Part shown: one piece after another, positions 8,078-44,900 of the stretch
How positions within the stretch are numbered: the first letter of the stretch is position 1
How the letters are laid out: the number at the start of each line of letters is the position of its first letter
Origin: Candidatus Omnitrophota bacterium
Lineage (GTDB): Bacteria; Omnitrophota; Omnitrophia; Omnitrophales; Aquincolibacteriaceae
Reading direction: 5' to 3'
NCBI GenBank assembly: GCA_903884815.1
Contig: CAISGE010000021.1
Location: forward strand, 448 to 64,447
DNA: 64,000 nucleotides
Made by a program: the position numbers and the translations under genes
Notes under the pieces: generated by a model
What the model saw: only the letters and a program-made list of their open reading frames with translations
Databases searched by the model: none
What the model was told of the DNA's origin: nothing

Positions 8078-8092
8078 TAACTATTTTAAAAT

Positions 8093-8140
8093 TGAACGGG
8101 GATGGCCCCTTTTTCGGGCTTTTCCCGTTCTTTTTTTCTG
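8093..8140 (+). terminator. Candidate rho-independent terminator downstream of the first giant ORF
   Basis: gaacggggatggcccctttttcgggcttttcccgttcttttttt: a GGGG/CCCC stem with loop ATGG followed by a T-run; the outer gaacggg/cccgttc is also an inverted repeat. It lies 16 nt after the TAA stop at 8075-8077. Confidence 0.45.
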
Positions 8141-8195
8141 CACAAGGTTTCAGGTCATAAGAACATCTTCTTGTTTGACGATTAGGCACAAAGCG

Positions 8196-8214
8196 CTGCG
8201 CCATTATGGCGCAG
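8196..8214. promoter_or_regulatory. Perfect 9-1-9 palindrome (ctgcgccat t atggcgcag) in the dnaK upstream region; candidate operator
   Basis: Read directly from the sequence, ~170 bp upstream of the dnaK ATG. A TTGACG hexamer lies at 8175-8180 just upstream. No canonical CIRCE (TTAGCACTC-N9-GAGTGCTAA) was found in 8078-8386. A second small hairpin (cctgcc-caa-ggcagg, 8357-8371) sits immediately before the RBS. Confidence 0.3.
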
Positions 8215-8386
8215 ACAAGCACTTCAATTCTCATATCAGAAACTTGATCAATGCAACCCATTTCTATTAAACGAGTTATAATTTTTTATTTTTTGGAATA
8301 ATGGCACGGTAATTGAGCTATGATGGACGTCACTCGTATTATCAACAAAACTCAAAGACCTGCCCAAGGCAGGCAAGGAGAATAAA

Positions 8387-20999: not shown

Positions 21000-23900
21000 T
21001 TAGGCAGCAACCGCGACGGAATTCTGAGCTTCGAGAGCGTTGAGGACCGCCTGAATAAACTCATTCCGCAAACACTCCGCTATCGAGAAATAGCCCGTCT
21101 CTTTATTTGAAGCTTGCTTCATGAGGTCCTTGAACTGATCTTTGCCGATCGACGCCGCCAATTGCGAGATCGCAAAGATCCGCTCGCCCAATCTCTTGCC
21201 TTCCTTGTCACTGATCATGACAATGGCGCCCTTATCCATCAGGCGGTTCAACACTCCACGCGCGCGCACAGACGCCAGAAGCTTCGGATTGACCGTCAGG
21301 ATGCGATGCTCCATCGAAGCGCCGCTCTTGGCTTCCGCCAAAAGCTTCGCCTCAAGCGCTTCGAGGCCCTTCACTGAATGATAATCATTATTGACCCCCG
21401 GAATATTGAGCAAGCGCGGCTCGTCAATACCATAGACCATCGATCGAACATTCTCGATCAAGGCGTCCATGCCGGAACGGTATTCAATGGTCGCTTCCAG
21501 GATCTGCAGAGCTTTCTCGTAGGCAGCACTCTCTTTGGGAAGGTTTGCCAGCACGGTCAGAAGGAATTCCAATTCGTTAACGACGGCAGAATGGCGAGAT
21601 GTTCCCGCCGCCTGGTCAGCCGCCTTTAGGGACTCAATTGTTTCTCGGTAAGAATCTTTCTCGTCACCTCCGAGAGCGTGGCGCAATTCATGCCGCAACG
21701 CCGATTCCATCGCATCAAGAACCATCGCTTGATCCAGAGCTCCCGAAGCATTGAAGACATCCACGAATTTTTGAGAGAGTACGATCTGTTTCGTGGTCTC
21801 GGTCTCCATATAGAAAGCCGATTTCCCAAGCGGAACTTGCCCAATACGGACGGAGACGCCCCTCTCACGTTCAAGACGCTCCAAAGCGTTCCTCTGGATT
21901 GCCGGCATGGAACCTCGGACCGTCCGGAGCAATCCTTCGCTTGCCACCTGACGAAAGCGCTCCGCATACCTTCCGGCATTCTTGAATCCCCCAAGCGAAA
22001 GAGCCGCCGGATCCGCATCGACCGGCAAGCCGGCACCCGCCGATCGCAACTCCGTCCGTCCACCCATTTCAACTGATGCTGCTGGCATCTCAGACGTGAC
22101 AGACTCTGGTTCATTTGTGGCATTTTGTTGAGACTCTTGTTCTTCAAGCCGGGTTTTTACCCAGTCATGCTTTGAGAACACATCAAACACAAGGAATATT
22201 CCGATACTTATCGCGGCGCCGACAGGGCCCGTGGTGACAGTCGAGATTCCGGCAATGCCCGCATATTTAAGAAAGGTCCCCAAAATACCCTTAGCATCTC
22301 CGCGAAGGGCACGCCTGAACAGGGTGTCCTTCGACTTTCGGGTAAGGATGTCCTCGATAGGCGCAAGCAACGCAATCGGAGCAAAAAGGCCGCTCAACGG
22401 AATAAGGAACGGCAGTACCTGGTATCCATACTGTATAGCGGCTGTCTTCTTCCAGGAACTCGGCTTAGCGGTCACAGGCCGCTCCTTCATAAGCCCAGTC
22501 GCCGAGCTCGACTGAGATTCGGCAGAGGGAATACCCGTGCGCTTTTCCGCGCGCACCGCAACAGGCCCCGCCGGCTGAGCAGCGGCAGCATTCGCGGCCA
22601 TGCGCAATTCCGGGCGCCCTGAACCGGCCGCAGGCGCTGGCGGCGGGAGTGCGGCCATTGAAGCCTGGGACAAGTTATCAACAAGGGATTTCAGGGTCCC
22701 GGCCATTTGATTAAGTTCATGGATATTCGTCGACTCAAATCCCCGCAAGTGCGCGTAGTAGCCGCTAAAGACATTAAAAACAGCCTCGATCTCGTTCCCC
22801 GTGGATTTATCCGCGTCAAATTGTCCCGTCTGAATATTGAAGCGGCGGATATGGTAGAAATCCCCATTGCTGTTCTCAGACATTTCGCCTTTGTGCGCAT
22901 CATCCTGAGCGCCCGACGTTTTCCCGTCAATCAGGATACCCTGCGTGCCCAGGACCCGAGCCGTGACATCTTTGTATTGAGCTGCGCTGCCGGGAGCCGC
23001 CACATCAATATAATGCTCGATATTTTGGGAGGGCATAAAGCCTTCTCCCGTAGACTCGATCTTCTCATAAGCCGGTTCTCCGTCATCGCCGACCGTCACT
23101 CGCTCGCTCGCAGCGCCGCGGCCATAATCATCCTCTGTTTTTTCAGTCTGATTCTGGCGGTCCGCAGAATAAACGCGCCGCACCCCCGTCAGAACATTTT
23201 TCAGCATCTGATTGAAGGGTTTACTTTGTACCGCGTGAAGGACGCCAAGCCCGACTTCTTCCCCCGTCGTCACAAGAAGACGGATCTCGCCTTCGTGCTT
23301 CGGCTCCCGGACTAAGGCGATGATCGTGCTCAGGATTATGGCGAGACCGGCCCGGTTATCGGCTCCGAGAGCCGAAAGCGGGTCTTTGGCGCGAATATTC
23401 CCGAAAGCGTCTATCGTTGCCTCAAGATCAGTCGCAACCTCGGGACGTACGTCCACGTGAGCTATGTGCAGGACGGGATCCTCTGTCGTATCGGGATTCT
23501 TCGCCGCGATCCTCACGGCCAATCCCTTGCCCGGAATCTGCTCGATCGCGTACTGATCCGAGGTGAGACCGGCGCTTGCGAGAAGCCCCACGAGGAGACT
23601 CCTTGTTTGATCCAACGCCAACCCCTCATCACGGATAGAAACCTTCGAAGGATCCAGGAGTTGGCTCAGGATGGCTTGCACCGATGATTCGTCATGGACA
23701 CCGTCCGTCAGCTTGATCGGCTGATAATCCGCGACATTATGAACAAGACCGAATTCCTGATAAAGAGCACCACGCAAGGCGTTCAGAGCAATAGCGGAAG
23801 CATCGCCGGCTTCCGGATGAGCGTTCAGATAGCTAACAAGTTTCTCATAGCCCTTCCCCGTATGGGCGCGCAGCGCACGTTCGATCAGACGGGCCTTGGC

Positions 23901-26900
23901 CCGGCCCTGTTCCTGGAGATCCATTTGCTCGGCCTGGGGCTTCAACGCTTCCGATGCGAGGAGCTCGTCTATCAGTTTCTCGGCATCCGCCTTCGCCTTA
24001 CCCAAGGTGATCGAACCGTTAGGCATCAATTGATCGCTCAAGGCATGAACGATGAGGTCGTCCGTGAGATCGTTCTGTTGCAATTGATCGGCAGTCAAAT
24101 CATCCAGCAGGACGAGATCGGCGGCGTTCGTTATATACTTTCCGAACCGGACGGCCTGAGATCCATGAAGCAGATACAGCCGGAAGAATGACCGGAATGA
24201 CGCCTTCATGATTTCCGAGCTGAAGTTATGACCCCGGGCGTAACTTTCGAGTTTCCTGTCGATCCCTTCCCAGTTATAGGTATGTCCGTGTTCCCGGTCC
24301 TGCAACTGCTCGATGATCTGGCCGAAGAAGTTAAAAACTTCCTCCATCATGATCATGCCATGTGAATCGCTCCGCGAGTACAGGTATGGGCGGGGTTGCG
24401 TGACATGCTTATATTCGTGTTGCGGCGACTGTTTCCACCAGTAATCGGCGCAATAGACCATCCCCGTTGACGTGAACCAGTTGGGACGCCCCTTGCCATC
24501 TCTCGCAATTTTGTATTCATGGGCCACCGTCGCTTCCGCACCCGTCGACTGAACCCAGTTATTCTTCATAAAGTCATAATATTCACCTATCTCCTGGACG
24601 ATATCTTCGGCAACATTAAAAACGGGCACCCCCATGTTGGTGTATCCATGCTTCGACATCCATAGGTCCATCCGCTCTTGATCCGATAGACCTGCGTCTT
24701 CCGGCAGGTTCGCCGTGGCGGGGATTGCCATGGAGGTTCCCAAACCGTCCGATTTCTCGACACGGCCCGTGGTCGGATCAAAACGGGCAACCCCGAAAAA
24801 GATCTTCCCTTCCCTCATTTTCGATTCGATGAAATCGACGAATTTAGCACGGCGAGCCGGATCGATCTGAAGCCGGTGACTCCCGTTCTCGTTATTTTCC
24901 ATCGTGAACACGTAGTATTCGGCCATCGACCGATAATCGCCCTTGGCGGTAGCTTCTCTTATAAACGCGCCGAAATCTTCGACCCCACGCAAATGCCTTG
25001 CGGTTGATAAAAGGTCCAAGGCAGAAAGTCTTTGCGCCGTATCGTTCGTGAGTACTTCCGAAGTGACAGTCCCGTCGCGGCCCATACGCTTGGCCGACAA
25101 GCCGCTTTCCGTCGCGCGTTTCAGGAATAGTTCATAGGCTTTGGCATAGGCCTTAATCTGCTCCAGCGCTTCCTGGGCCTTCTTTCCCGCAGACTTGTAT
25201 TCATTGAGCTTATCATTGGAAACCGATCGCTTCGCCTGGGTGATCGTCGCGGGAAGCAGAATCATGATCTTTTCCATGAGCGGCACAATATCCTGGAGGT
25301 CGGTCATTCGACCCGGAGTGCGATTGGCCTCAGACAGAGGATCCAGCAATTCAGAAAGTTGCTGTCTCAGCATCATGAGTTCATTGTCACCGATGTCGAT
25401 CTTCTGCAGGGACTTCAGGAAAGCCTGGATCAGCCCATAACTTGATTGCTGCAAAAGAATATCTCTTTCTTTCTCATCGAATTCGCCATCGGTTTGGATC
25501 AACCGGATAGCCGATCTTGCGAAATCGGCGCCTTGAATGAAGTGATCAAAACCGGCCAACCGGGCCGATTCCATGAGCCGGATCATCGCTTCATAACGAT
25601 CCGAAGAGCTCATAACTGCAAGCATATCCGCCCGAGCCTTCTCGTTCGCGTTTTTGAGATCCTCCGCGAAAGCTACTTTTTGGGCTTCGATAATGGCGAT
25701 CAAGGCGCTGTCTTGCACGGGATCGAGCCGGCTGATCAGATGGTTCAGCATGCTGACATCGTCGACAGGAGGATTCCCCTGATCGCGCGCTTCGATCATC
25801 TGATCCACGATCTCCATGAACCGGTCTGCCGACGGCTCCTGTTGCGACAAAGCGCTGCGATAGACCGGCAAAAGAGCCCGCGAAGCGGCAAATTCGGTCG
25901 AGTACGCCGAGATCTTAAGCCAATCGTCGAGCAGTAGTCTCTTTCCCGGATCTGGGATCTGGGCGATATTCTTAAGCTCCTCCAGAGAGAAAAATATTTC
26001 GTTCAGCCGAATCCCGGGAACACCGTTGTTTTCCACGAGCCGCGCATCGGCCAGCAACACCTTGCGTCCGTCCGGGCTCATCACAGGCGCGAAACTTTTG
26101 CCGTCCGGCTGGCGGGTATAAAGCACCGGCCCGACATCGCGCGTATGCTGGTTAATGTTATCAAAGAGGAAGACATCCTGAACTGCCCCGTCGACTATAT
26201 TGAGATCGGCAAATCCACCCTCATGGTTCGCGCCGCCGCTTGAGAGCTTCAGCACGTCTCCGTCGAAAGCGACAGAGAGTGCGGTCACGAGATCATGACG
26301 CTGGAATTCCATCGCACGACCGAATTCATCCAGAATTCCGGCCAAGACCACGCGACTTCCGTCCACCATTGCCGAAACTCCCGATCCGGCCTCAATGCGG
26401 ACCTTATCCGGGCTGAAAAACACCTTTACCCCTCGCCCTCGGTTCGTCTCGGCGATCCACTGTCCGCCGTGGAATTCAAAATTCGTAACCTGCTGACCCG
26501 AGAGATTGACAAGGGGCGCGCCGGTATGACTCACGATCTGATTTCCGTTTAGAATGAACCGCTCCTTCATTTTTATTTTCGCTTCGGCCGCCAAGGCGGA
26601 AGGGGTCAGTCCGGACGTCAGAGTCAGACCTTTCAAATTAAGGAAAAGATCTTCCGAGTTTGAGAAAACAGCACCTTGCGCCTGCAGATCCATCAGAAAT
26701 TTATCGACTTTGTTTCCATCCGTCAAACCGAGCCGGACCAGAAGTTCAGCATCCCGGAGCGATTTGAGATTAAACGCTATACCCCCGTCGAGCATGATCG
26801 AACTGGCCTGAAGATCCAGCCAAAGGTTCGCCGCCTTTGCCGCCGTCTGAAACGCGTCCGTTTGGCTCCAATCCGTGTCACGCCACAACTCGAAGATCTG

Positions 26901-29900
26901 GCTCACGCTCAACCTGTCCTCTCCCGCGAAGGCCTTCACAAAATGCAGCTGGTTTAAAAAATCACCGAGTCTCGGCCGGATCACCAAATTGATGTCCTTC
27001 AGGATATCGGCTTCGACCCGTGCAAGATTGCCCTGGACACGGGCCGCGGCAATGGCCTGCCGGTGAACTCGCATTTGATTCTGCGACGGGGCAAGTTCCG
27101 CAGCAAGGGCAAGGACCCGGCTCATCACGAGTGCGGCGGGATTGGAATACTGGCCGGAGGGACCGGAAATCCTGATCTTCTTAGTGGGATCCGCCGGGTC
27201 TGTTACCTCAAAGCCAGTACAATCCAGGAAATCAAAGAGTTCGTCCGCGCTCATACCAATTCGGGACACACCGATGATCGTCGCGGCCTGCGACACAACA
27301 TCGCGGACTTCGGTTCGCCGCTCCGTGGAGGACGTGCCCGCCCGGTCGACCCCGCTTGCCAGCACCGAAAGAGCGAGGGCCTGCCGGAGAGCGCCCTTGA
27401 AAACACCCTCGGAGAGCTGCTGATAAGAAGCAAGCGGCATCCTCCGGAGCACCTGATAGAACGCCAGGGGATCAATCACTTCACCCCACTGATCCGCTTC
27501 CGCACTACTGAATCCGGCCTTTTTAAAGACCTGCCCCGTGATCATGGATTGTTCGGACAAGGTTACAAGCTTCGAAAGCTGCTCGGGCTCCATTTGTTGC
27601 AGAGCGTCCAAAACCGTGCCGCTCAGGTTCAGATTCTTGGCAAGGACCGCGCGCCGCTTGGCCTGCTGGGCACCGCCCGGCAACGCCAGCATTTCGGACA
27701 CGATCAGATCCCAGACCTTGACAGCTCCCCCGCGCGGGAGGGCGCCACGAAGCTCCGTGATATCTTCAGTGGTTAGACCATAGCCCAGCAACTGATGATA
27801 GATAGTCAAATAGGATTTCCAATTATCGAAACCGGTATCGCCGAGAAGAGATTTCAGCCAGCTTGCCTGAGACTCAAGATGCGACTTCATCTCGTCTTCA
27901 TAATTCACGCTAAACACAACGCGCCCGGCCTGGAACCTGGCCTTCAGGAGGGAGTTGTTTGTGAGCAGTTGGCGGAGATTCGCGTCCTGAATCTTCGCAA
28001 CATCAATCTTTATCCCCGCGACATTCACAGTTCGGATTTTTGTTGTATTATCTGTCTGAACGGGCGCCTTATACTCACCATTCAGGGTCTCAAGCATCGC
28101 CCTGTCTTTGTCGGGAGTCCCCTCGGTAAGCTCCGACGCCTGCACGGTAACTTCGCTCGCCCGCCTCGATGCGTCTAGACCGGCCCGGGCACCTATCCCG
28201 CTCAATTCCGGCGCGAACTCGACGGCAAAACCCAGAGCAATAGCGATCATCGTGTCCGCCCGGGACGCCACATCGGTTTTAAAGCTGAGATTCCCGAAAA
28301 ACTCCCCTTCATACTGGCGCCGCCGCTGCGCTTGATTGATCGCCTCAAACTCAACACCCGCCCGTTCGATCACAGTACCGGCTGTCTCCACGGCCTCCTG
28401 GAGAGACCGCCTCACGGGTTCGCTTAGCTCTTTTCCGGCTCCCTTCGTGAGAAAGTTGTTAAGTTGATCTTTCGCCGTTTTCGCTCTTGAGCGGACAAGG
28501 CTGTTCACCGAATGAGGTCCGGAAACATAATCGTCGCCCCGTTCCATATCATAATCGCTGCCGTAATGGCGCATCAGTTCAATATTGAATTCACAAAGGA
28601 TCTCGCGCTCCTTGACGCCCTGGGCGCCCTGCGTAAAATTCGCCCGGAACATCGCGTCGCGCATCGGGTTGAACATGAGTGCGAAATCCATGAGCTGGCC
28701 GGTAAGGGAACGCGCTGTCGCGTCCGCCGCGTGGGCGCTGTTCAGCGCGTAGCTGAGGAGGAACTGCTCTTCCTTCGACAATTTCTCCCACTGCCCCTCA
28801 TGCACATTCCGCAGCCGGTCAAGAAGCTCGACGATGTTCTTCGGTCCGTTCTCGCCCAATTTATTCCCATACTCGTAGGCTTTTCCTGCGGGTGTATCCA
28901 TCCGCTCAAGAAAAAATTTGCGCCATCCGTCAATAGCCTTGAAATCAGAGAACACACTCATTTGGCTCTCAAGAAAATCCTGATTCTGATAGACCACAAT
29001 ATCCGCGTCATAGCGATCCTTGTCGCCAAACTTCACTTCATTGACAGGCTTAAGCGTTTCCGACAGAAAACTACTCCCCTCCTCTGTCACCCGATCCGCC
29101 GCAGACCGATCACTTGAAAGAATCTCGCTCAGTTTTCTCCCGTCCTGTCCTTTTCCCAAGGCAGTTTTGAGCGCGGCACTATAGGTCTCCCAATATTTTG
29201 AATTAATCTGATCAGCAAGATCTTGGGACGTTCCCCAGAGCCCCGATTTCCCTTCCGCGTAAGCCGAGACCATCGCTTCAAAAACCTCGTGCATGGCGAT
29301 CGTACGGCCAATACGGCCTTGGTTCTGAATCAACATAACGGAGGTGATCTCCGGCGTGAACCCGGCATAAAGCATATTTTCACGCTGATAATCGAAACCG
29401 ATCAGCGCGTGCTGGGCCGCCAAAACGATTTTCTCCTCGCTCCCCTGGTTGAACTTATCAACAGAGGGCTTGACGCTCTGCTGGCTTTCATAGGTTCCGT
29501 CGATCACAACGATCTGGTCCACCTTGATTTTCTCTTTTACCAATTCCGCTTTAACCAGGTCGATCATCGTATCCGTCGAAAAGCCCGACAGAACCGACCG
29601 CCGTCCCTCTTTAAACGCTGCGATTAGCTCTCGAGCGATAAAGTTGGCTTCCGCTTCCTGTGACTTGAAACTCGAAGGTTTCCAAGACTTGAGCTCGAAT
29701 GATTTCTTGGCTTGTCCCGGTCCGCGCGTCTTCTGAGAAAGAAGTTCATGGATATAAGCATCCGCGAACTGTCCACCCTTTCCGAAGATAACTTCCGTAT
29801 TCCGGCCGGCGATCATTTTCGCCTGCATGCTCACTTCCGCCACAGTGCCCGACATTCCGTAAGCGGCAGAAACCCCGCCAAAAAGCATAAAGATATCGGC

Positions 29901-32900
29901 CATGCTGGAAGCCGTGAGCGTATTCGTCATCTCGATGTTTTTGGCGCTCCCGCGGATCTGGGCAAGATCCAACGACTCGTAGCGGTTCGCCTTTCCGGCG
30001 GCCTTCAGGACCTGCGTCTCAGTCTTATACCCGGCCTCCTTCGACCCCTTGATGCCGAGACCGGCCAATTCATGGGCCAAACCGACATCATTGAGTTTAT
30101 AGCTGATCGTGATCAAACCGACGGTATCCGAAATGATCTGGGTATCCGCCTGCTTTCCGTCAGAACCCATGGGACGGTATTGATCCCCGACCCCTTTCCG
30201 GATCCTCCCCACGATACCCCGCTCAACCATTTCCGCGGTACGCATCGCCTGGTATTTCAAGATGGACTGGAGCTCTGAGGTGAAGATCGAAAGATCCTCA
30301 AGCTTCTCGCTCCTGTCATTCACCGGGATCGACTCGTTCTCGGCATCATAGATCTTGTTATAGCGTTCTTTTAGCGCGTCCGCTGCGCGGCCCCGCTTGA
30401 AGAACTGTCCGACTTGTGTCGAGGACTTCCGTATCTCGTACCGGGACGAATCAAAGAGAATAACCGCCCTCTGGTCGCCGTACTGCTTAAAATACTTTCC
30501 GCTCTCAGTCACAATGATGTGATCGCTCCAGCTCAGATTGGACTGATCCACGACATTATCGAAGCGGTCCATGAGAACGCCGTCCTTTTCCCAAAGCATG
30601 ATACTCTTGTCGCCCTTCATGGCCGGATCCACGAAAAGTTCGTTGTAGGCGCAGTACACATGAAAATAGCGCAGCTCGGTGGCTTTCATCGTATCGCCGC
30701 CGAGGATAAAATAAGTCGGATCCACAATGCGGTGGATCTCGTCCATATTGCGGACTGAACTTTGGAACACCTTGGAGAATTCCTGGTACTTGGCAAGCTC
30801 CGTCGACCGGAAATGCGTCATCAGATGGCCGAGGGTGGTATAACTCACGGCCAGCACCTCGCGGGCCTGATTTCCGTCTTGACTGAGAATGCTGAGCAAT
30901 CGCTGATAAGCTGCTTCGCGGCCAGACTCGGGGCCTTTGGTGATGGCTTCGATCAATTTCTCCCCATTAACCAGCTCAATGCCCAAAGCGTTGGCGAGTT
31001 TTTCAGCCGGAGACTTCTTTTGATTCGGCTCAGCAACAATACGCCCGACCGCCTGCTCACTTTCAGTGATATGGACATTCGCGCCAAAAATGAAATCAAA
31101 GGTCGCCATAAGGAAGGTCTTCCCGCCACCTACGGCTACGTTCACATTCGAGCCCAAAAGTCCTTCCAGAATGGCGCACATTTGCTCGTGCAAAAGTTTG
31201 ATGCCTCTGGCGCTGAAGACGAGCGCCGCGGTACGGAGCATCGTTTCGTGGGCCTTGAAGCCTCCCATGCTTGAGAAGAAATCCTTGAGCGAGGGCTCGG
31301 CCTTTGCGTCGCGAACGGTTTTTTCCATGAATGCGAAAATACGGGCATAGCTCTCAAATCCCCCGCCGCCTTCCGCCGCACATCGCGGCGCAAGATAACT
31401 CTCGAGGAATCGATTGAATTCCGGTTCGGAGAGTCCCACCGTCTTTGCAGATTTCTTTGCACTCCCGAAAGCGGTGTCGAGAATTCCCACTGCCGCCTGC
31501 CGGACCATGGTATCGGGGTCTAACAACTCCGAAATCAGACTGGGTTGCGCCTCATCGACGGGATAGGCCTGGTTTTTTATGTTCTTCAAAAACATGGCGT
31601 GAATAGCCGTCAGTTCGGTAACGAGGGTATCGAGGTTCGGGGCTTTATCAATCGCGTTAAACTTCTCGACGCCGTGGGTGAGTACAAAATAATACGCCGC
31701 GCTGGCAGCTCTCTCCACAGCCGCCGTCTCAATGGGAGAATTTTCAAGACTCGTCTTCCATGACCGCACCGGATCACTTGCAAGCCAGTCATTTACCGTT
31801 TGAACCCGTTGGCGCACAAAAAACTCGACAAGGACTGGATTGCTGACGCGCGGACTGGTGCCGTTCTTAAAAATCAGTTTGCCGTCACTTTCCGTCTGAA
31901 GCACCAATTTCCCATTTTCAACGACAAAAGAAACGTCGCCGCCGTAACGCCTGATCTCCGGAGCCAGGTAAAAACGCATGATCTCGAGGGCGACAGATGT
32001 CGCAAAGCTATTTTTCAAAAGGGCTTCTTTCCCCTCGAATTTTCCTTTGAGATCCAGCAACTGCTCCGCCACTTTTACCAGCGAGTCTACCTGGCTCAGC
32101 CATGGGTTATGAGCCTGGACCTTTTCAGCCTGATGGCGGAGAGCCTCGAACGCGGCGGCCTTTTCAGGATCGGCATCAATTCCCGTGACGCCCAGAGTAT
32201 TCATGAAAACCGCGATCTGGACATGTGAGTTGGTCTCGGCAAGCTTCGTGATCAAAGACTCAAGCAGCGTCCCTTTATACCCCCCGTCAAGCACCGCGTT
32301 TCCGAGCGCTCTCGCAAACGCGCCGTTCTTGTCCAACCCACTGATCACCTGAAAAAGATGATCGGCCGTTTCCACAGAAAGGATCAAAGGCGCCTTCTCC
32401 CCGTCGATCCCGAAAACAACCCTTGCGACCTGTCCTTCGGCATACTGACTCGCCGGGATATTCCGGAAAGCGTCAAAAAGCGCCTTGACCTGCTCCTTCA
32501 CCCCGATCGACGTGCGCATGTCCATGCGCCGCGCGCTTTCGCGCAGAATGGCAAAACGCCCGATAGCGTCCAGCCCTTCAAGACTCCGGCCGGAGCGCAC
32601 CGAAAAGATCCCTCCGTGAGTTTCAATGATAGATCTCAAGATCGACTCAGAGGGACTCAATTTACTGATCAAAAGGTCCAAAACATTATTCCCGTCGATC
32701 GTGACACTGTGGCCATCGAGAGTGGACAAGTCATTCAATATCGTCATGAACCGGTCGCCTTCTCCTGCACGGACAGCATCAACGTAGATAGTTAAAAGAC
32801 CCCGTGATACCGAAGCGTCGGACGAATACCGGGAGATGTTAATCCAGGAATCTAGCAATTTTCTTTTACCCGAACCAACTTCGATCGTGTCAGGATTCCT

Positions 32901-35900
32901 GAGTTCCTCCATAGTAAAGTTGTGAATTCCAAGAATGACCCCCGACCGCGTCACTCTTGCTCCCGCTGCGAGCACAAGCTGGAAGGTGCTCCCATCCGCG
33001 GCCTGGATCGACAAAAAGCCTTGGGTCTCCGTCTGACGGAAGAATTCATTCAGAAAAGCTCCAAACTCGCCGCGCGGCAGGCCGGTAAACAAAGCATCCG
33101 CGATCGCCGTCATTATGTCCGTGCTGGCTTCCAGCCGTCCCTCGAGGCCTCGGAGGGCCTCGGGCAACGTGCCGCCCATTTTTTCCGCGATGGAGACGGC
33201 GGGTTTTGCGGTCTGATTGGGTGCGGAAGGATTGGCCGCATCCTTGACGGGTACTGACTTAACCTCTTCCGGCGCCTTAAAAAGCCGCGCGCCAACCGAC
33301 GTCCGTTCACTGGCCGAAACCTTTGCGAAGGAACTGGCCATAGGACGAGTCCAGTTATCAAGCAACACAGCCTTAAACTCCCCAGTGATCACATCGAACA
33401 GGTGAGTCACTTCCGCGGGAGCAAGCTTACCGCTATAAAAGTTATTGAGCAGTTCGTCTACGGTCAGCCTGCCGCCCGCTTTATCGGAGTTGAAACTTTC
33501 GAGGCTCAGGCGGCCGGTCATAGCAGCATCGCGAACGATAAAATCCAGGCGTCCCCTATTGATACTGGAAAGTCCCGTGGATAATTGAGGCGGGCGGGCA
33601 AGATCGGCGAGGATGCCTTGGGCAACATCCAAACGCCCCTTGTTCAGAGCGCGATAAATCGTAGCTCTCGCCGTTTCTCCGAGGCCATTGACGAACGTTT
33701 GCACCTCAGGGCTCAGTATCCCGAGCCTAATATTACATCCGACCTCGAAATCAGAAAGTCGTCCCGCCGCGTCATAGCTCTGGCGGGCGAGAGGGCTCAG
33801 GCTGTCCAAAAGCCCCTGAAGTCCGTCAGGACTTGCCAAGAAATCCGGGAGGAGATTGGCGCGAACATCTATCATGCTTCCGGAGCCGGTGGACGTGCTC
33901 ATGAATTTCCAAACTGTGAAAGCTTGAAGGTCCTGAAGAACATCCTTATCCGTGATCACGCTTGTCAGAGCGCGTGGAACAACTATTGGAGGCGCACTCA
34001 TCAGGATCTTCTCCGCAACGACATGATCCCGGTTAGCCATAGCTTCGTGAAAGGCCGACCTCGCCCTGTCATTTAAAGCGGTGTAGCGCGCCTGATCACG
34101 ACGCAAAGGCTCACGAATAATATCCCGGAACGGAGACCGCAGATTGCCGGCTGCCTGAGGCACCAGGAGGATCGCGCTTCTTGAAAGAGCGCCCGCGAAC
34201 GTGCCGAGTTCGGTAAAGGCTCTTGTAAAATCCCCTGAAACCGCTACCGCGAGTACGCCGGCTAAAAATCCGGGAAGGCTCGCGAAATCTTTCAGGATGG
34301 ATTCCACATCAGAAATTCCCTGAACGTGCCCCTCCTTCTGCTGGATGACGGGGGCCTTAACCAATGTCGCGAAAGCCTGTGACGATGCCATCACCAAATT
34401 AAAAAGCAGAAGATTATCGGCATAAGCAAAACCTGAGGATGCGAAACCCGCCAGGGTTTGCTTCCAGCCTTGGGCCATATACGTTTCCGTCATTTTCGCG
34501 GCCCATCGGGTGACAGAGCCCGGCAAGAGCGCCCGGATGACCCCGTTCGTTTCTGAAAAACGTCCAAAAAGGCCCTGCGAGAAGGTCGGCGCAAAAAAAT
34601 GAAGCGCCTGCCCCAGCAGGACATCATGAAGCACACGGCTCGGCGCCCAGGCTTTTGCATCAAGGAAGTTGGTGCGAAAAACGTAAATCAAATGTCCCCA
34701 ATAGCTCCGATCCTCATCCTGGATAAAATGCATTCCAAATTGATTCATCACCACTTCAAAAAGATGTTCGACCCCGAGAGCCGCCATGGCCACAGGCAGC
34801 ATATGGAAGGTCACCACGCTCCGGCCGGCATCAATGACTAACAGCTTTAAGATGCTCGTGTTAAGACTCACGCTTTCCTGGGCAAGACGCGCTCCGAACC
34901 GGGAGGCCGCACCCAAACCAGCCACACGATCCACGAGCAGTTGTCCCTGAAGCGACAGCTCCCCGGCCGCTGTAATTCCTTGGACTGTTACCAAACGGGC
35001 CAAAAGCACTCCTTGCAGGGCTTTGAGACCCAGCGATACCATCAAGAGCGTAATGCCCGCATCCCGGATCGGTTTATTCCCCTTCAAGGCGCCATACGCC
35101 GCCATCCCGACACCGGCTCCATAGACGGCGACATTGCCAAGTCCCAGGAACACCTGCCCCCATTTAAAATAAGAGGCGGCGCCGGCCGCCGTTTTGATGG
35201 AAGAAATTCCAGCGATCTCGGAAATCGACGGCGCAAAGAACTGGACAAACCGCGCGCCGATGGCAAACCCCGCGACCAAGATCCCCATGTTTGTCAACCA
35301 AGGATTGTCGCTCCATTTGCCGGCACCAAACATCGCAACGCCGACGGTCGCCGCAATATTCATCATCCCCGCGACAACGCGGGAAGTTTTCGCGAAAAAT
35401 CCAATAGAAGAACTGATCTTGCTGAATTGGTTCACCCCCAAAGCGATGCGCCATAAAGAACCGATGGCGATAGCGGAAGCACCGATAGTGGTCAATAATT
35501 TTCCGTAGCCCACCGCCCAATCCTGATGGGCCGCCAGGCCGAACCCCCAAAGCCCGAGCCCGGTCAGAGTGGTAAGTCTGGCCATTCCCACGAAGAGGTT
35601 CGAAGTGTTGGCAGCCCAACCGGCCGCCATGCTCAGCTGCCGGAGCCGGCTAATACCCGAAACTGTGGAGAACACCGTTTTGGTCGATTTCACAAATCCT
35701 GCAGCACGGCTTGCCTGCGCAATACCTTGTGCGGTCTTCATTCCCTTGCTGATTGCATTGACGGCTTCCGCAGCGATCTTCCTGCCCCAACCTCCGAAAA
35801 GAGCGCCCAGGATAAAACCTGCCATCTCAATCGTGGTCAGGACCTTATAGGTCATATCTGTTTGATCTATAACACCGCAGTACTCCAATCCCCCCTTCAG

Positions 35901-38900
35901 GATCGTCGTGCCAATTCCTACCCACATGGCATACGCCGATACTTTCATGATAATGGCTGCGGTACTGGCACCCACTGCCGAGAGGATAGCTCCTGCAATA
36001 GCCCCCACTGCACAGACCCCCGCATAAAGGGCAATCCCAGCCATGGCAACCGCCGTGGGGGCGTTAGCTGCTGCCCAGAGCAGGGTTTGCGCGCTGTAGA
36101 GCCTGCCGAACTCCCAGAAGCTGATCTTTTCTTCCCGCGAAACTCCGGTGATAGTATTCGTATCGGTCCAGCTTCTCCAACTGTGGAAAGTCCTGACGTT
36201 ACCTAACGAAGCGCCGACCAGCTCAAGCGAGGAATTCACGCCCCAGTGACTGTACAACGTATCACTCGCTATAACTTCGTTGGCGAAGCCCTGGTAGGGA
36301 CGCCCCTCGTAAACGATCAGCCGGTTATCAAACAAGGAACCCGGATTGTCAGTCCCCTTCACGATCCCGATAAAGCCGTACTGATTGTTCATCTGATCGA
36401 CAAACAACCGGTTCGCTATGAGATTGTCCCCCGCCGCCCCGCCGCCCCAGACCGTATCGGCCGGAAGATAGTATGTGAAGGTCACGGTCTGACTGTCTTC
36501 GTGGGTATAAGCTATTCCCTTATCCGTATCATGAACAAGCTTGTCCGCAAAGCTACCGCTCTCACGATATGTGACAACATCCATGACCGTTTCGCCGCGC
36601 AAATTTTTCCGCACAACATACTCTGTACGGTCCTGATGAAATACAGCCTGAGCTGTTCCGTTCTTCGCGTAGGAGCGGGATTTGACCTCGATAAGGCGGC
36701 CATAGTCATCAAATACTGGGAGTTCCTTATAAGTCAGCGTGCACTCGAGCGAAGCTTGGCCCCGCCAAAAGAGATGTCCCAAAGTGATCGTACCATCCAG
36801 GCTTGCAGTGACGCCTTCGGAATCAACCACTTCGCACTGCGCCAGGCCGAGGCCGATCCGTTCTTTGGTAAAATACTTGCCGGTAGTATCTTCCCGCGCC
36901 ATCATGTCCAGGACAATTTTGTAACCGGCCTTTCCGTCTGTCTTGTCAAACTTGAAGTCTTTCCCGAGCTGATAATCTTTGTAATTGGAGTTCACAATGA
37001 TTCCTGCCTTATAATCCGTTATACCGTTGTCCATTTCTTTAAAAGTCATCTCGTCTTTAGAGAAATAGTTCCACTCCTTGGTGGTTTTCTGACCAACGAC
37101 CTTCTGTATCCAGTAAGTGACTCCCTCTTCAAGGTCCAAGGCATTGCAACGAAGGGATTCCACCCCCTTCCCCTTGATCTGCCCAACCATTCCTTTGAAC
37201 TGATCAACCATTCCCTTGAACCGATCCAAAGGAGTGTCTCCAAGACTTAAAAAAGCCTCGTTTCCGGCCAGCGATTTCATTTCAAAAGACGCATCTTTGC
37301 CGAACAGAGTGCCCGTCACAACCAAGTTCTTGTCGGCGGCTTTAAACTCCTGCGTAAATCCCCATTTCCAGTCAACTTTTGACACGAGGGCATTATGTCC
37401 GCTTGCGATCCAGCCCTTATTAATTTCCTCGAGCTTGTCCTCCAAAAGGAATTTGTAAGCGCTTGCTTGTTCAACATTCAGCGTTATCAACCCCTTTCCA
37501 TAACTTATCTTTTCAACGAGGATGGTTCCCTTGGCGTCAGATGTTCCGGCACCGCCGATATTCTGCCCTCCAAAAGTATAAGTTCCTGAAAAGGACATGT
37601 CCTGAAACTCACCCCAGTCTTTCCAATAAACGGTTTCCGCGAACTCCTTGAACGTACCCGCAATATTCGCGCTGACCTTACCCGGCAGAAACTTCTGGAG
37701 AAACTCACGGCCTTCCTCGGATTCGGCGCCCACATGTTGATTGAGATGTATCAATTCGATGGCACTAAGCGGTTGATCCGCAGAAGACGAATATATGATA
37801 GAAAGATCCCCTTGACCGGCTTTCCGGGAAGCATCGAGGGTGAATTCACCATTATAAAAATTAATGTGCCCGAGCCCCCCGCCGGAGGTCTGGACATCAA
37901 TCACGACTTTATTTAAGCCCTGGGCTCTCATAAAAACGTGTTCGATCTCCTTTCCGTTTTCGTCAACCCCTTTCACGCGGAAAGCCGCTATCAGGTCCGC
38001 AAAAGTCTTACTCGACTCCCAGAGTCGCACGCCATTGGCATCCCGGATCTTCCCATTGACGATCTTGAAGGTGACATTGTTGAAATTCCAGTACCCATTC
38101 CCGTTCAACTTCTCCCCCAAGATCGCGCCGAGGGTCGCGACGTAACGGGAGACACCGTTAAATTCACCCCCGACGACCTGGAGGGCAAAGTCGGTGCTAC
38201 GGATCACGCCGAGCGCTACCGCAGCCTCCGTCATGCGGTCCATAAGCTTCGCGGATTCCGCCGGATCCATGAGCGCCAGTATTTTCGAGGAATCCGAAGA
38301 AACCATCATTTTCGCCCGGGCAGGTTGCATCCACGTGGTGTTATTTTCACCGGAATAGGTCAGCCATCCTTGCTCGGAAACATTGACGCGTTCAAAGTTC
38401 CCGCCGTTGGCAAGAAATAAAAACTCGAAGCCATTGGTCATGGCGTCGATCCAAGGGTGCTGTTCATGGTTCATAATGCCAATGAAGCCCGTGAAATTGC
38501 CGTCTTTGATCTCGGCAAAACGGGTGGGATCATGCCGCACCCCGGACTGGATGATCAGTGAGGTGACCGCGTTGGAAACCATGGTCTGCATCGACTGCAT
38601 CTGGATATTCAGCTTTCTGATCGCCTCGGGTGAGGCATCAATCTTCCAATCCTCTTTCGAGGTGTTGATAAACTTGTCTAAAGCCTCGCCAAGCTTCACG
38701 GAAAAGGCGCTCCAGCCCAGAAAATCCCGTCCGCCGGAACTTGCGGATAGCCGCGTCTGGATACCAAGATCCGGAGTAAACCAATGCGTATCTCTAAGTG
38801 CACTTATCTGCTCCGTTGTAAAGACCTTCAGTAGGCTCTCACGGAACTCCGGAGTGTCATCCAGGGTCAGGGCGACGGAGAGCTTCACCGTCTTTCCGTC

Positions 38901-41900
38901 TGAGAGCATATACGCATTCCCAATGGATTTTCCATCGGGACCGGTCAAAGCCTGCGTCGCCCCTTTGAGGCCGACCGCGCCGTTGACGATTTCATAGATA
39001 GTCCCCGAGGCTTCCCGGAGACCTGAGGCGGCAATTTGCTGGCGGATATATTCCATTTGAACCGGGGAGTATTTCTCGGAAGCCGTACGAAGAGTACCGT
39101 CGGCCATGCGGATATTGACGCTATAAGAATTACGGCCAAATATCTCGATCCAGCCGCTGCCGCCGATATAACGAAGCTCCGGCGTCTCTGCTGTCGGAAC
39201 GAGAATATCGGAGGAGTCAATGAGCTTGCTTTGCAGGAAGCTCAGCATCTTCGCCGCCACGGACGGCAGAAGACCGGTTCTCGACCCGCCCCCCGCGGGC
39301 GTCTCCATCAAAGGGGTCCCTAAAAAGAAATTCGCCACGGAATTCATCGCGTTCGTCAGCCATGAAGCGATGGAGCCGCTCTCCTCCTCATGAGCGGAAG
39401 CCCCCTGGCCGCTAACAAGGTTTTTAAGATAGCCCAGCATTTTGGACGCGGCGGAGGGCTTATTGAAAACCCGGATCTCATCCCCTTTTTTCAACCAAGA
39501 GAGGCAATCCTCATTGAAATTCCAGGCGCCGATCGCGCCCGTGCGAATCCCGTTCGCGTCGATCTCATAGGCTCTCCCCGGCAGGGCGCGAACCCCCAGA
39601 AGCTGCAGGCTGTCGTAGAGATGCTGGAGACCACCTTCTATATCCTGGTCTCGCATTTCTCTCCCGTCCGCAAAAGAAACTTTGTACAGGTTGACGACCT
39701 CGATCCGTTTCCCTTCTTGAGTGTGAATGCTCGTCGTACTCTCACCGGCGTTAAAGCTGGAGAACTCTCCACTGTAACTATTGGCAGACATGACCGCCCC
39801 GGTGACGGAATTCCCGATATATTGAATGCCGCCCAAGCCTCCCAGGAAATTCTTATCAAACATGCCGGTCCATCCATTCGCGCTGCCGTTGGCCAGCATG
39901 AGGCAGAGATTCTCAGTCAACCGAAGGTTGAGAGCATTCAGACGGCCCTTATATGTGTCGATCTCGTCTTTTTGCAAAGCGCCTCCACTCAAAGCGCCGA
40001 TCAAATACGGCATATAGCGACGAAAGGTTTTCCCGCCCTGTTTGAAATCGACGATCTCCTGAGCGCCTACGTTCAGCTGCACCAGCTTCCCGTCACGAAG
40101 CCCAAAGAATTTCCCGCTATCTGCGACAAAGTCCACTTTGCCAAGGTCAAAGTTGTAATAACCGATCCCGCCGGAAAACATCCGGCTGTCTTTGTAAAAC
40201 GTAACGAGATTCGCATTCAGACGCAGGCCCAGAGCTTCGATCTCGCTCTTCAGAATATCCGTCGCATCGCCGGCCGGAAGGATATTTCCGGTCATATCCA
40301 TGATGTCATACGGGCCGTTGACCATATACATCGCCCCGTCATCCTGCAGAACAGAAAATGAGCGGTTCGGCGTGGCGGCTATGGCGTTAAAGCTTCCCGT
40401 ATTGATGTTATGGCTGAGGATCGTCAGATTGTCGGTCCCGGAGGAAGATATGCTAAGGAAGTCCTTCCCCTTCAATGAAAGAAAACGCGCCGTACCGGCG
40501 CTGAGCTTCTCCCCGGCTGTCATACGAAGGGTGGAATCCAGACCAAACGTGGTGGTTGCATAGCCTAAGAGAGCCCCGGCAAAGGGATTCGCCCGGAGAA
40601 TGTCTGTCGGGGCCGCAACTTCACCCTCGAGGGTGGCACCACCCAACAGTGAGGCAAAGATTTTGGTCAGCTCCGCTCCGGTCATAACGCTCGTAAGGGC
40701 CTTTCCGGTGATGGCGTCATAGAGGATCCTGTCTGCGGTACTTCCGTAAAAGGAAATCGCTCCGTCCTTCCTGGATTGCAGCACCCCCGCGATCCCCAAA
40801 CGGTTCAGCCCGCTGTCATAGATGAGCAGGACATTGCCGTTAGAATCTTTCCCCGCCCCTAAAGCATAGGAATCCGTAAGTCCAATAATAGCCCGCGTCA
40901 GTTGGCGGCCGCCGTCAGCCATCACATCGTTCGCGATACCGCTCGCTGCGGGCATGGTCCCAAAAACCCAATGTCCCGCTTTGTCGGAGAGCCACTGGTC
41001 GGTGTTCTTGATCGCGACGCCGTCCATTTCCGTGAAGCCGTGCATTATTAGGTTGCTCCCGAATGCGCCAAACGCCGCGTAGCCCTCTTTGGCCGCCGCA
41101 AGGGCCTGCGTAAAAGTCATATTCGTTATCAGCCGGCCGTTCGCGTCCCGGTATTGAGCAGGCGCGTTATCGCCGGGCATGCTCATCGTCCTGGACGCCT
41201 TGTCTTCCACCGCGTCCTGGGAGATCATGATCCCGAATTTCGCGATGTAGGTTTCCGTGCGGGTCCGGTCGCCCGCCCTCCCTCCCGATACAATCTTGAA
41301 GAAATCAAAAGTGTCCTTGCCACGCGCGGAGCCGATAACGCGCGCGACGATCTTATCGCCTTCAATTCCGCCCTGGATAAGGCCGGTTGCGTCGAAAATA
41401 GCCTGGTTCAGCCGTCCGGACAGAGGGCCCATATTTAACCCGTCGAGCATCGCGTACGCGCTCACGCCCTGACGCTGGAGCGCTCCGGACGCGTTGAGCA
41501 CCGTCAGATAAATCTTTCCTCCGGCGGAATATTCTTCCTTGATGAGAAGAACAGATCCGCCGCGATTGCCGGCATAGACCTTGTTGTCGAGCCAATAGAC
41601 GACATTCCCCGTTTTTTTGTCCGGCTCAAAGGCCTGGGCGTAAACCGAGCCGTCCTTGTTGATAAGCGCAAAGTTGATCATGCTCTTCGCAATGCCGTCC
41701 AGAGCCCACTTGGAGAGTCCGTTCGTCCCGGTAGCCGAAATGATCGTGTTCGAATAGACGCCGCGGCTGACACCGTCATGGGCGAGGATATTCACCGCCT
41801 TCCCGTCAATAAGCGTCGGGGTCCGGTAATCGGCATTATTAATATGGCTCACGACAACCCCGTAAGCGCCGTAGCCGCCGCCATTCGCCGTGGGTATCGA

Positions 41901-44900
41901 CGAGACTCCCCAGCCGATAACAAAAGCCTCTACGCCGGCTCTATTCAAAGTGACCATGCGCATCGAATTTTTCGAATCGGCTTCAGTGGCATGAGGGATC
42001 AGCTTTTCAAGGATATTTTTAAAAGCCGTGGCGCCTGACGCCGTCGAAAGATCCATCCGGGCTCCCTCCAGAACAGCCTTTTTAATGAAGGCGAATGTGG
42101 CCTTCAGACTGCCCCAGCTTCCGTTCTCCGAAACCGCCTGACCGCCGAGATGCTGGATGGTCAGACTTTCGGTGAGGATCCTTCCGTCCTTCTTCAGAAT
42201 GCTCAGGAAAAGAGAACGTTCAGCGGTGAAGAAGCTTGCATCGAGCACTCCGTAGCGCCGCAGCGATTCCGCCGCGAGGATCTCCATGCCCGATACCGTG
42301 AGAAGGTCCAGGGTACGGGCCTTGGCACGCAGAGCCTCCAATTTCGAGCCCTCGAGTCCTATCAGATGCGCCGTCCCGTTCCGGTCAAAGATCCAGTTGT
42401 CGGTCTGCTTGATCCTGACGGTGTTGATGGATTTGACGCCCCAGCCAATCAGCCTGGCCCCGGAATAGTCCGAGGCGACAAATCCGGTTCGCGCCATTTT
42501 CAGGAGAGCAGCCCAGGAGGGGCCAAAAATCTTGTTCCCGGCGATGTCTATCATGTAGACCTGCCCGGTCTTCACATCGCGGTAGATCGTCGATCCGTTC
42601 TGGAAGATCTTCTCGGTGTTCAGTTTCCAAGTGTAAGTGTCGGTCAGCGAGTATTCGGCGGCACCGTGGCCGTCCAAGATCGATTTGGTGAGCAACAGGT
42701 TATCACCGCGAGCACTAATGACGCGGCCGGCGCTGTTACGGAGCAAGGTCAATGAACCCGAAGACCGGAGTGTCATGTGATTGCGATCGTCCCTGTATTC
42801 TTGCTGCAGCCGGGCATACCGCGACAAGAGCCCCGTGGACGGATCCCGCTGGGAGAAGGTTGTCGTCATGGACTCATAGCCTCTCCGGGAAAAGATCTCC
42901 GTCAGTGCCGTGCCTCCGGAGGAAAGACCGGCCATGCTCGCGCTGAAGCTGAGGTCGCCCGACTGATTATAAAACCCGACCGTCGTCGCCGTGGTGACCG
43001 TGTCACCGGTCCGTGTGCTCGAGGCCGCAGCGGGGGTTTTGGATCCGCCCGTGATGGTCGAACCCGCCTGGCCCGTGCCGTGCTTGTCGATCGGCTTTTT
43101 GTCCTCATTCACTTTTTGCGAGGCCTTCATCATCGGGACGAAAACATCGTTTCGTAATTGATGGTTCCGGTCCTGCGTCAGATAAAAATCATAATAACGG
43201 TAAGTAAGATATTTTGTGACCAGCCCCGAATCGCTCTGATACGTGTCTAAAATTCTAGCGCATTCTGCTTTGAAGGCATTTGCGGCATCTTTTTCTGCTT
43301 TTTGCATCGCATTCCACGCCGTTTTATCGCTCCCAAAACCTCCGGCCGCGGCATACGCGATATGATAGACCTGTTCCGCCACCTGATACGCGGATTGATA
43401 TGTCGCCTGGGCCGCAAGCCCGTAAAAATTGGCACGTAGCATCAAAAGATTGTTATCGAGACCGCTGACCAGGTAATAGTCCTTGGCGTCTGTCAAAGCG
43501 GTCGTGAGTTCACTGGTGCGGGTGGTGGCCAAACCGACCAAAGTGCTGAGGATCGCCCCTGCATCGGAGGTGAGATGCTTAAGCGCAGCCTCAACGTTGG
43601 CAGCCCAGGTGTTATCCTTCGATGTGATGTCTGTTTGACCACCATTTGTCCTGTCTCTCCCATGAGGGCCATCAATATAAAAACATCCCATATCGCTGCC
43701 ACTCCCATAAATGGGTTGGAACAGATCTCCTGCCTGGCCGCCCCAACCGGAATAACCGGCCAGAGAACCGTAGAGATTGATCGCATTGTTCAACGCGGCG
43801 GCCTTTCTGAGAAGGATGGCCGTCTTGAACCCCTGGGCGGCAATATCCGCGGAACAACCATCCTCTGTCGTCTTACACAAAGCGTCATTCACGGCGTCGA
43901 GGGCACCGAAGTAAGCCGAGCGTACCGATTCGACCCTCCCCATAATATCGTCGACATTCGCGACCCAAACGCCTCTGGCGGCATCTCTCACTGTCTTCTG
44001 GGTGCGATCGCCGACCCACTCATTCGACTCCATTGCCACCTTAAGGGCGATCACTATCCCGCTGTTGACCCGGAGAGCGCTGTCCGCTTTCACAAGATCC
44101 AGAAACTTCCCGCGGATGCCTGCATAGTCGGCTGTCAGTGTCTCCAGATACCCCCCGGTTCCCGTGACCAGAGCAGCCCCATCCGTGATCGATTTAGAAT
44201 TGTCTCCATAGTATGCGGTGGGAGAATTCGCTTTATAGAGAGTGGAATCGAGCAAGGGATACTGCTGTAAAACCGTTTCCGTAAAACGCGTGACACGCTC
44301 CACAGCATACCCGGTCACCATATCTTCCAGGCCGTTCGCGGAACCGACGATCTGGAGCGTCACCCCGTCACTTGTCCGGACAAATCCCCCTTGGCTGAAT
44401 GCCCGCGTGAGTGAATCGCCATCGACGGATGCGTCCTGCAATGCGTCCGTGACTGATCCCTGATAGTTCTGTTGGGCAGCACGCAAGGAGGTTTGATAAG
44501 ATGCGGCGTCACCGCCAAGAGAGTTCAGATTGGTCGCAAGATCCGTGGTATTTCCTTCTCGGATGCTTGTAATCGTGTCTTTCGCAAGATCCTCCTCGTG
44601 AGTATCCTTGTCTATGCTTCCTTCGGCCTCACCACTCCCTTTAAATAACGCCTTAGTCTGATCCACAACCGTCTTCATATAGCCGATGGTGGCGCTGTAT
44701 AAACCGGCGGCGGCTGTTGAAGTCGTGTTAATGCGGCTAAGTGCTTTATCAATGAAATCGGTCGCTCCATCAACAACTGTGGAGTCCCATTTGAGATTCC
44801 CGGACTGATCAAACTCCGGCGGGATGGGCAGCCGGATATTGACGTCATTCATCGTAAAGAAAAGGGCGTCCCGGGACGCGTAGCGGAAAAGGCCGCAATC

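Follow-up and report, generated by a model that had tools for sequence, protein, structure and literature searches.

What kind of motor is carried deep inside a protein of 12,696 residues, and what might it move? The question is raised by the giant open reading frame (ORF) at positions 21000..59090 of the window, the whole 64,000-nucleotide stretch of the Candidatus Omnitrophota contig CAISGE010000021.1 that was analysed here. The ORF has 12,696 codons, is encoded on the minus strand (as are all the features of the giant protein described below), and is collinear over its C-terminal ~5,000 amino acids (aa) with 15 homologues. An earlier note, made from the sequence of this DNA, had pointed to three helicase-like motif strings in the protein, and all three lie where the note had placed them and in the frame of the ORF. 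We found that these strings almost certainly belong to an ATPase of helicase superfamily 2 (SF2) at 29286..31196 (aa ~9299-9935), composed of lobe 1, an insertion domain and lobe 2. Taken as a whole, we read the module, with a probability of roughly 0.55, as a SecA-like ATP-driven polypeptide motor, in which lobe 1 with motifs I, Ia and II is followed by an alpha/beta domain of ~250 aa, by motif III, and by a compact lobe 2 with motifs IV to VI.

Motif I (P-loop) reads VAVGGGKTFL (aa 9318-9327; 31110..31139) and contains K9324, its glycine and lysine being invariant among the homologues. The earlier note had described this string as a Walker A motif; a P-loop is indeed present, but it has the SF2 form GxGKT and not the strict form [AG]xxxxGK[ST], the first position being V. 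A Q-like residue (in HEQM, 31170-31196) stands upstream of motif I, and motif Ia, ANVHITESEQAV (31047..31082), follows the family pattern NV.LVP[SN]..L..Q and aligns with GVHVVTVNDYLA of SecA. Motif II, MDEIH (aa 9449-9453; 30732-30746), contains D9450, E9451 and H9453, is separated from motif I by 131 aa, and forms with the invariant next strand DPTYFILGG a segment (30696..30746) that resembles the DEVD...TPLIISG of SecA in a by-eye comparison. The insertion domain (aa 9466-9715; 29946..30695) fills the interval between motifs II and III; it is of alpha/beta type and has the conserved element QYRP...IISDT..LI. After it come the pre-III strand IEMTNTLTASSMADIF and motif III, GMSGT (together 29844..29936), which align with ...ITFQNYFRLY..GMTGTA of SecA. 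The GMSGT is invariant, follows T.T.TA.S..D.F, and lies ~290 residues past the DEIH. In lobe 2, a motif IV-like strand, RSVLSGFST (29574..29600), aligns with QPVLVGT of SecA, and motif V, VLAAQHALIGFDYQ (QHALIGFDYQ; 29385..29426), has the family pattern NQ.GLTG.DYQ and aligns with TNMAGRGTDI of SecA. Motif VI, QNQGRIGRT (aa 9922-9930; 29301..29327), supplies R9926 and R9929 as arginine fingers, both invariant. The distance from motif II to motif VI is 472 aa, in agreement with the ~470 aa that the earlier note had given.

Such motifs alone prove little, since chance would give each of them about once in 12,696 aa (GxGK[ST] 0.75, DExH 0.61 and GRxGR 0.27). This expectation favors the view that the motifs co-occur by chance, or that they are left from a decayed pseudo-ATPase which serves as a scaffold only, as does the result that the window segment, used as a single sequence, had no relevant match in Pfam, NCBIfam or the PDB sequences. 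The ordered triple of motifs at helicase-like spacings, on the other hand, was obtained in just 4 of 5000 shuffles. A word-indexed protein search with single-sequence and alignment queries found no homologues, and HMMER, run exhaustively against 1.84 billion representative proteins, returned only 10 relatives, nine of them 4,400-7,200 aa long. The closest of the 10 is 56% identical and the others are 26-39% identical. A scan of the GTDB species genomes yielded 11 more loci (3 identical to proteins already in hand), and every homologue locus with a taxonomic label is from Candidatus Omnitrophota, including Ca. Taenariivivens.

We aligned the ATPase family in sets of 11 and 17 sequences, with position 1 of the aligned segment corresponding to aa 9280. 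In 11 homologues with 23-59% identity, G44, K45, D171, E172, H174, R647 and R650 (aligned-segment numbering) were invariant, and motifs I, Ia, II, III, V and VI were collinear and near-invariant across the 17 homologous segments. In these alignments motif I has the form N-x-x-[VM]-G-x-G-K-[TS]; motif II is D-E-x-H followed by [DN]P.[YH]FI.GG; the insertion has QYRP...IIxDT..LI, invariant or nearly so; motif III is T.T.TA.S..D.F....G[MQ][ST]GT; motif V is NQ.[GA]L[TI]G.[DN]YQ; and motif VI is Q..[GW]R[VI].R. The catalytic lysine, the Asp-Glu pair and the histidine of motif II, like the two arginines of motif VI, show no variation at an overall identity of ~25%. This points to an ATPase under purifying selection, and to neither a coincidence nor a decayed relic. 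The nucleotide-binding and hydrolysis site is, to judge from its residues, intact.

The profile evidence for membership in SF2 came through the family. In a Pfam scan of 11 individual members, Helicase_C matched 5 of 11, ResIII 4, T1R_D3-like 3 and DEAD 1, with several members matched at 1e-5 to 1e-7, while the ATPase segment of the giant protein itself had no Pfam match. The family consensus scored 32.1 bits against Helicase_C (gathering threshold 23.5; consensus positions 495-600) and 27.5 bits against ResIII (gathering threshold 22.5; positions 25-172). Because the consensus passes the Pfam thresholds and several members are matched, but the segment alone is not, its SF2 profile membership is one of transitive homology. 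The two Pfam matches mark out the part of lobe 1 that ends with motif II and, ~320 residues further on, a compact lobe 2 (about aa 9790-9935). When phmmer and the family profile were run against the PDB sequences, only marginal P-loop matches, to XPBII and VCP, were obtained; the two RecA-like lobes are supported by the fold comparison described below.

The two RecA-like lobes proposed in the earlier note are therefore borne out by motifs, profiles and fold, but the large insertion that it had assigned to lobe 2 lies in lobe 1, between motifs II and III, and lobe 2 is compact. The note had also allowed that the three strings might be coincidental; motifs Ia, III and V were found to be present and conserved, as were both arginines of motif VI, and the consensus and the fold are those of an SF2 ATPase. 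We regard the assignment to SF2 as practically certain. With the fold of SF2 type, the consensus above the Pfam thresholds and the catalytic residues invariant over 17 homologues, chance co-occurrence or a scaffold-only relic is hardly credible. The label of a DExH-type protein is right for the motif, but extends no further: a DEAH/RHA or Ski2-like RNA helicase was rejected, because despite the DEIH neither the giant protein nor its homologues had an HA2, OB_NTP_bind or Sec63-type match.

Which SF2 motor does the module resemble? An AlphaFold2 model of aa 9280-9990, built from an 11-row alignment, was compared with 350,542 PDB chains using Foldseek (3Di+AA). Ranks 1 to 8 were all SecA or SecA2 (E 2e-6 to 1e-3), and all seven matches at E<=1e-3 are SecA or SecA2. 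The best matches were B. subtilis SecA (1tf2, 2.1e-6) and C. difficile SecA2 (6t4h, 7.7e-6), with alignments of ~750 columns. The first match outside SecA was DinG (2.2e-3), which belongs to the strongest competing explanation: that the module is a membrane-tethered SF2 helicase or translocase of nucleic acids, either Rad3/DinG-like with an Arch-type insertion or ComFA-like, acting for example in the uptake of prey nucleic acids. The ranking speaks against it, since eight SecA/SecA2 structures come before any DinG, with a gap in E-value of some three orders of magnitude.

Profile comparison pointed in the same direction as the fold. The SecA reference was an alignment of 12 SecA/SecA2 sequences, taken from E. 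coli K-12 and from a varied set of genes on plasmids or chromids, and was later enlarged to 14 with the SecA-like motors of two large actinobacterial proteins, L024 and L025. Between the family and the 12-sequence reference, hhalign produced three collinear local matches: family 4-86 with SecA 62-151, covering the Q-like residue and motifs I and Ia (P 0.0055); family 186-226 with SecA 300-338, inside the preprotein cross-linking domain (PPXD) (P 0.26, not significant); and family 390-527 with SecA 373-475, covering the pre-III strand and motifs III and IV (P 0.001). Between the 17-sequence family and the 14-sequence SecA-like alignment, motifs III to VI were joined in a single alignment of 159 columns (P 5.2e-5, probability 67%), and the region of motifs I and Ia was matched at P 0.0056. 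The paired elements are GMSGT with GMTGTA, RSVLSGFST with QPVLVGT, NQ.GLTG.DYQ with TNMAGRGTDI, and Q..GRVGR with QLRGRSGR. A reversed-column decoy reached a best P of 0.21. For comparison, hhalign of the family with E. coli DinG aligned the P-loop only (P 0.04). The ~250-aa insertion in lobe 1 occupies the interval between motifs II and III, which is the position of the PPXD in SecA; the insertion domain had no significant fold match, and its identity with the PPXD is not demonstrable.

Several results weigh against a specific relationship with SecA. The AlphaFold2 model has a mean pLDDT of 63 and a pTM of 0.42, with lobe 1 and the insertion at 70-91 and lobe 2 poor, and the Foldseek TM-scores are only ~0.19, because of the poor domain packing in the model, so that the ranking of SecA depends on the 3Di alignment score. 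Neither SecA_DEAD (PF07517) nor SecA_PP_bind (PF01043) of Pfam matched any of the 17 members or the consensus at E<=10; NCBIfam gave no match for the consensus and no SecA model; and an in-house SecA hidden Markov model (HMM) had no match in the family or in any full-length homologue. The last result also excludes a second recognisable SecA domain in these proteins. With E. coli SecA as a single sequence, the hhalign probability was 2%, and in single-sequence controls UvrB (1.8e-4, in the P-loop region), RhlE (4.5e-4, in lobe 2) and RapA (5.9e-4) outscored SecA (0.018), so that the lobes as such are of a generic SF2 type. In motif II the family has DExH where SecA has DEVD. After lobe 2, a helical scaffold, a wing and a two-helix finger all went undetected: SecA_SW had no match, and the segment that follows the ATPase, block C (described below), aligned with the SecA C-terminal region at a P of 0.55. 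Finally, we infer both that the module is cytoplasmic and that it uses ATP to move a polymer at the membrane.

Some of these results also count for a nucleic-acid motor. The core-lobe profiles match the generic helicase models Helicase_C, ResIII, DEAD and T1R_D3-like, the better single-sequence scores are those of UvrB, RhlE and RapA, and a DExH motif II is found in DinG and XPD. Rad3-family helicases also have a large insertion in helicase domain HD1. Against this, the alignment has no conserved cysteine for a Fe-S cluster, Helicase_C_2 reached just E 0.068 for the consensus, and no nucleic-acid-binding or nuclease domain was found across the whole 12.7-kaa protein. A DinG-type Fe-S helicase in particular was rejected because no cysteine is invariant, the Helicase_C_2 match is at E 0.068 and the DinG alignment is confined to the P-loop. 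On balance we judge a nucleic-acid helicase or translocase unlikely, if still the most serious competitor, and consider it fairly likely that the module is specifically SecA-like.

The position of the module in the giant protein bears on where such a motor would act. Hydropathy scans found a signal or anchor segment at aa 20-38, and after it the next hydrophobic segments only at aa 7660-8380, where ~10-12 of them form a polytopic transmembrane (TM) cluster (33951..36113; BLAST blocks at query 7800-8340). This cluster is kept in the homologues as block A. It lies ~1,000 aa upstream of the ATPase in the giant protein and 1,000-1,700 aa upstream in every full-length homologue, so the linkage of the module to a membrane domain is conserved. 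A two-segment hydrophobic hairpin is also present at aa 12225-12305. The family is a rare one, of giant Omnitrophota membrane proteins with a constant block order, which BLAST of the giant protein against all homologues gave as TM cluster (~7800-8340), ATPase (9200-9940), block C (10020-10330), block D and block E.

Block C (aa 10016-10340, ~320 aa; 28071..29045) is helical, directly follows the ATPase and is strongly conserved in all homologues, with the family pattern LLS.A.NSA.A.DATA.SL..Q...F.L...P. It had no match to a known family and may be a functional partner of the motor. Blocks D (aa 11477-11640; 24171-24662) and E (aa about 12335-12696; 21003-22088) are conserved in the homologues as well, and each contains an HExxH motif, HEYKH at aa 11558 in block D and HELRH at aa 12467 in block E; the counterparts in one homologue, P0006, are HEELH and HELVH. 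No Pfam model matches either block, and on the strength of their motifs the two may be zincin-like peptidase modules. Two homologues, L005 and L009, have a GNAT acetyltransferase near the C-terminus, downstream of the ATPase. In the same general C-terminal region of the giant protein, at 22989-23378 (aa 11905-12034), there is a match to Peptidase_M42 (glutamyl aminopeptidase; E 1.2e-4) whose 21.7 bits fall short of the cutoff of 23.2.

From this layout, the ~7,600-aa N-terminal region is probably extracellular, and the part after the TM cluster (~4,300 aa, including the ATPase) is probably cytoplasmic, because a GNAT needs acetyl-CoA and an ATPase needs ATP. The presumed extracellular part contains a tandem repeat at 50501-51117 (aa ~2658-2864), with a unit of 219 nt (73 aa), 2.8 copies and 87% matches; in the protein, copies 1 and 2 are almost identical (MRQVTVGNFTYVISNYTSAFSDSVPVSGKKIEYTIQEKDSTYSNVGVTTTNETWMKVTTGLTSSF) and are followed by several more diverged copies. 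The sole RHS_repeat match in the giant protein, at 54408-54506 (aa 1529-1561), is below threshold (E 0.0022, 18.8 against 22 bits), so that the label of an RHS-type toxin rests on a YD-like sequence texture and has no profile match behind it.

The earlier note had considered two functions, an ATP-driven translocation module, which is the reading that we also favor, and a nucleic-acid-targeting effector delivered with the giant protein. In the second, an SF2 domain of effector or polyvalent type would be secreted or injected and would act in the target cell. The N-terminal ~7,600 aa do look surface-exposed, with a signal or anchor, YD/RHS-like sequence, one sub-threshold RHS_repeat and tandem repeats, and SecA-like motors do occur in some large plasmid proteins, such as that of L024. 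However, in all full-length homologues the TM cluster precedes the domain. The domain lies within the conserved C-terminal core, for which the acetyl-CoA-dependent GNAT downstream of it in L005 and L009 indicates a cytoplasmic location; an ATPase moreover requires ATP, which is absent outside the cell. The neighboring genes are of housekeeping type, namely dnaK, a MoxR/vWA/TPR operon of 'Bat' type, def, and genes for ACT-domain, AsmA-like and CCA-adding-enzyme-like proteins, the base composition of the window is uniform (GC 0.48-0.56), and no PADLOC, methyltransferase or nuclease signatures were found. Delivery as an effector is, in our estimation, highly improbable. An RHS-toxin-associated effector ATPase was likewise rejected.

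Nor did the analogy that the earlier note drew with polyvalent proteins of phages and conjugative elements hold. Neighbor genes, GC and PADLOC gave no sign that the locus is a defence island or part of a mobile element, or that the protein is polyvalent. A polyvalent phage or conjugative protein was rejected since the giant protein has no methyltransferase or nuclease domains, the neighbors are chromosomal and PADLOC returned nothing relevant, the phage and plasmid collections not having been searched with the window DNA.

We propose that this divergent SF2 ATPase with a SecA-like organisation would be driven by ATP to push or remodel polypeptide at the membrane, and would fill the role of SecA in the export or assembly of giant surface proteins. 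Because ~7,600 exported residues are translated ahead of the motor, it could not export its own chain in cis during translation, and would act either post-translationally or in trans, on partner proteins or on new copies. Polypeptide is the likeliest substrate, with a chance close to even or slightly below. Among candidates for the engine that exports or assembles proteins of 10,000 to >100,000 residues, an intact and conserved ATPase beside a membrane domain is the most obvious. The ATPase with block C is also compact, at about 650-1,050 aa, and its catalytic residues are defined (K9324, D9450/E9451 and R9926/R9929).

A bolder proposal, which we hold to be rather doubtful, is that the family is a hitherto unrecognised clade of SF2, invisible to Pfam and restricted to giant membrane proteins of Omnitrophota, that the 250-aa domain has a new fold replacing the PPXD, and that the motor and the polytopic membrane domain covalently attached to it together form a self-contained Sec-independent translocon, or else that the motor imports nucleic acids. 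If true, both versions would fit a use in the predatory or epibiotic way of life of these bacteria.

Elsewhere in the window, a second very large ORF lies at 68-8077 on the plus strand (2,669 aa; called with 2,803 aa on another contig). Its product has an inositol-monophosphatase domain at aa 397-722, several hydrophobic segments, three repeats of ~100 aa and a recurrent R-S-E-[TK]-R motif, and is otherwise unannotatable. The last gene of the MoxR/vWA/TPR operon (16171-18276, plus strand) encodes a low-complexity tail of ~200 aa that is rich in Q, K, D and G (QQKNQQQKQDQKDQQKDQQGQGQQ...). For the DnaK gene (8387-10330, plus strand), an identical DnaK with the same neighbors was found on contigs in 34 blocks of the public assembly collection, several of these being ENA metagenome assemblies (L030 and L031), which indicates that the source organism recurs across samples.

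How does the module compare with known systems? Rad3, XPD and DinG differ from it in that it has no conserved Fe-S cysteines and no DEAD_2 or Helicase_C_2 match at threshold, and in that they rank below SecA in Foldseek. With SecA and SecA2 the module shares the SF2 motor, the insertion between motifs II and III, the top Foldseek match over its whole length, and the collinear I-Ia and III-VI segments. It differs from them in having no HMM-level similarity, an insertion that is not demonstrably a PPXD, and none of the helical scaffold domain (HSD), helical wing domain (HWD) or two-helix finger, and the present motor is covalently fused to a membrane domain in a 12.7-kaa protein.

Another parallel is L024, on plasmid pJCM18538 of Mycolicibacterium arabiense (NZ_AP022592.1, 188139-198560), where a SecA-type motor also lies inside a very large protein that is not SecA, in this case a hypothetical one of 3,473 aa. 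The motif forms of L024, NMAAGEGKS, DEID...HYILSEG and DEIDEALVYSNGHYILSEG, are intermediate between those of SecA and of the Omnitrophota family, and with L024 included in the SecA profile the hhalign P fell from 1e-3 to 5e-5. Unlike the present family, L024 has a clear match to the in-house SecA HMM (4.8e-51), and it comes from another phylum and a plasmid context.

The nearest described systems are themselves from Omnitrophota. West-Roberts et al. (2023, bioRxiv 10.1101/2023.11.21.568195) reported giant Omnitrophota proteins, of Archaeovorin and Dockerin types, that have TM anchors near the C-terminus and, after these, divergent SecA_DEAD/PP-binding domains which lack scaffold and wing; these SecA-related domains form a long-branched clade apart from the canonical SecA of the genome, and the proposal is that they may serve to export accessory proteins or the giant protein of which they are part. 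Among 916 long Omnitrophota proteins, a 2026 preprint (10.64898/2026.06.07.730766) lists an architecture cluster of 20 with PF07517. The present module is like those of West-Roberts et al. in the phylum of its named relatives, in being part of a giant membrane protein, in the order of TM anchors and then a SecA-type motor, in the lack of scaffold and wing, and in its strong divergence. It is different in that the published domains were found with Pfam HMMs, whereas the present family is invisible to SecA_DEAD and SecA_PP_bind, has DExH and not DExD, and has a lobe 2 that scores as an ordinary Helicase_C. Indeed, neither Pfam nor NCBIfam recognised the module, and it took the exhaustive HMMER search, profile-profile comparison and 3Di comparison to recover it; HMM-based surveys thus undercount SecA-like modules in giant proteins. 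Although it escapes the HMMs by which the published domains were recognised, and is matched to them by architecture and taxon, we class the present module as a further, more divergent member of the SecA-like kind already described in giant proteins.

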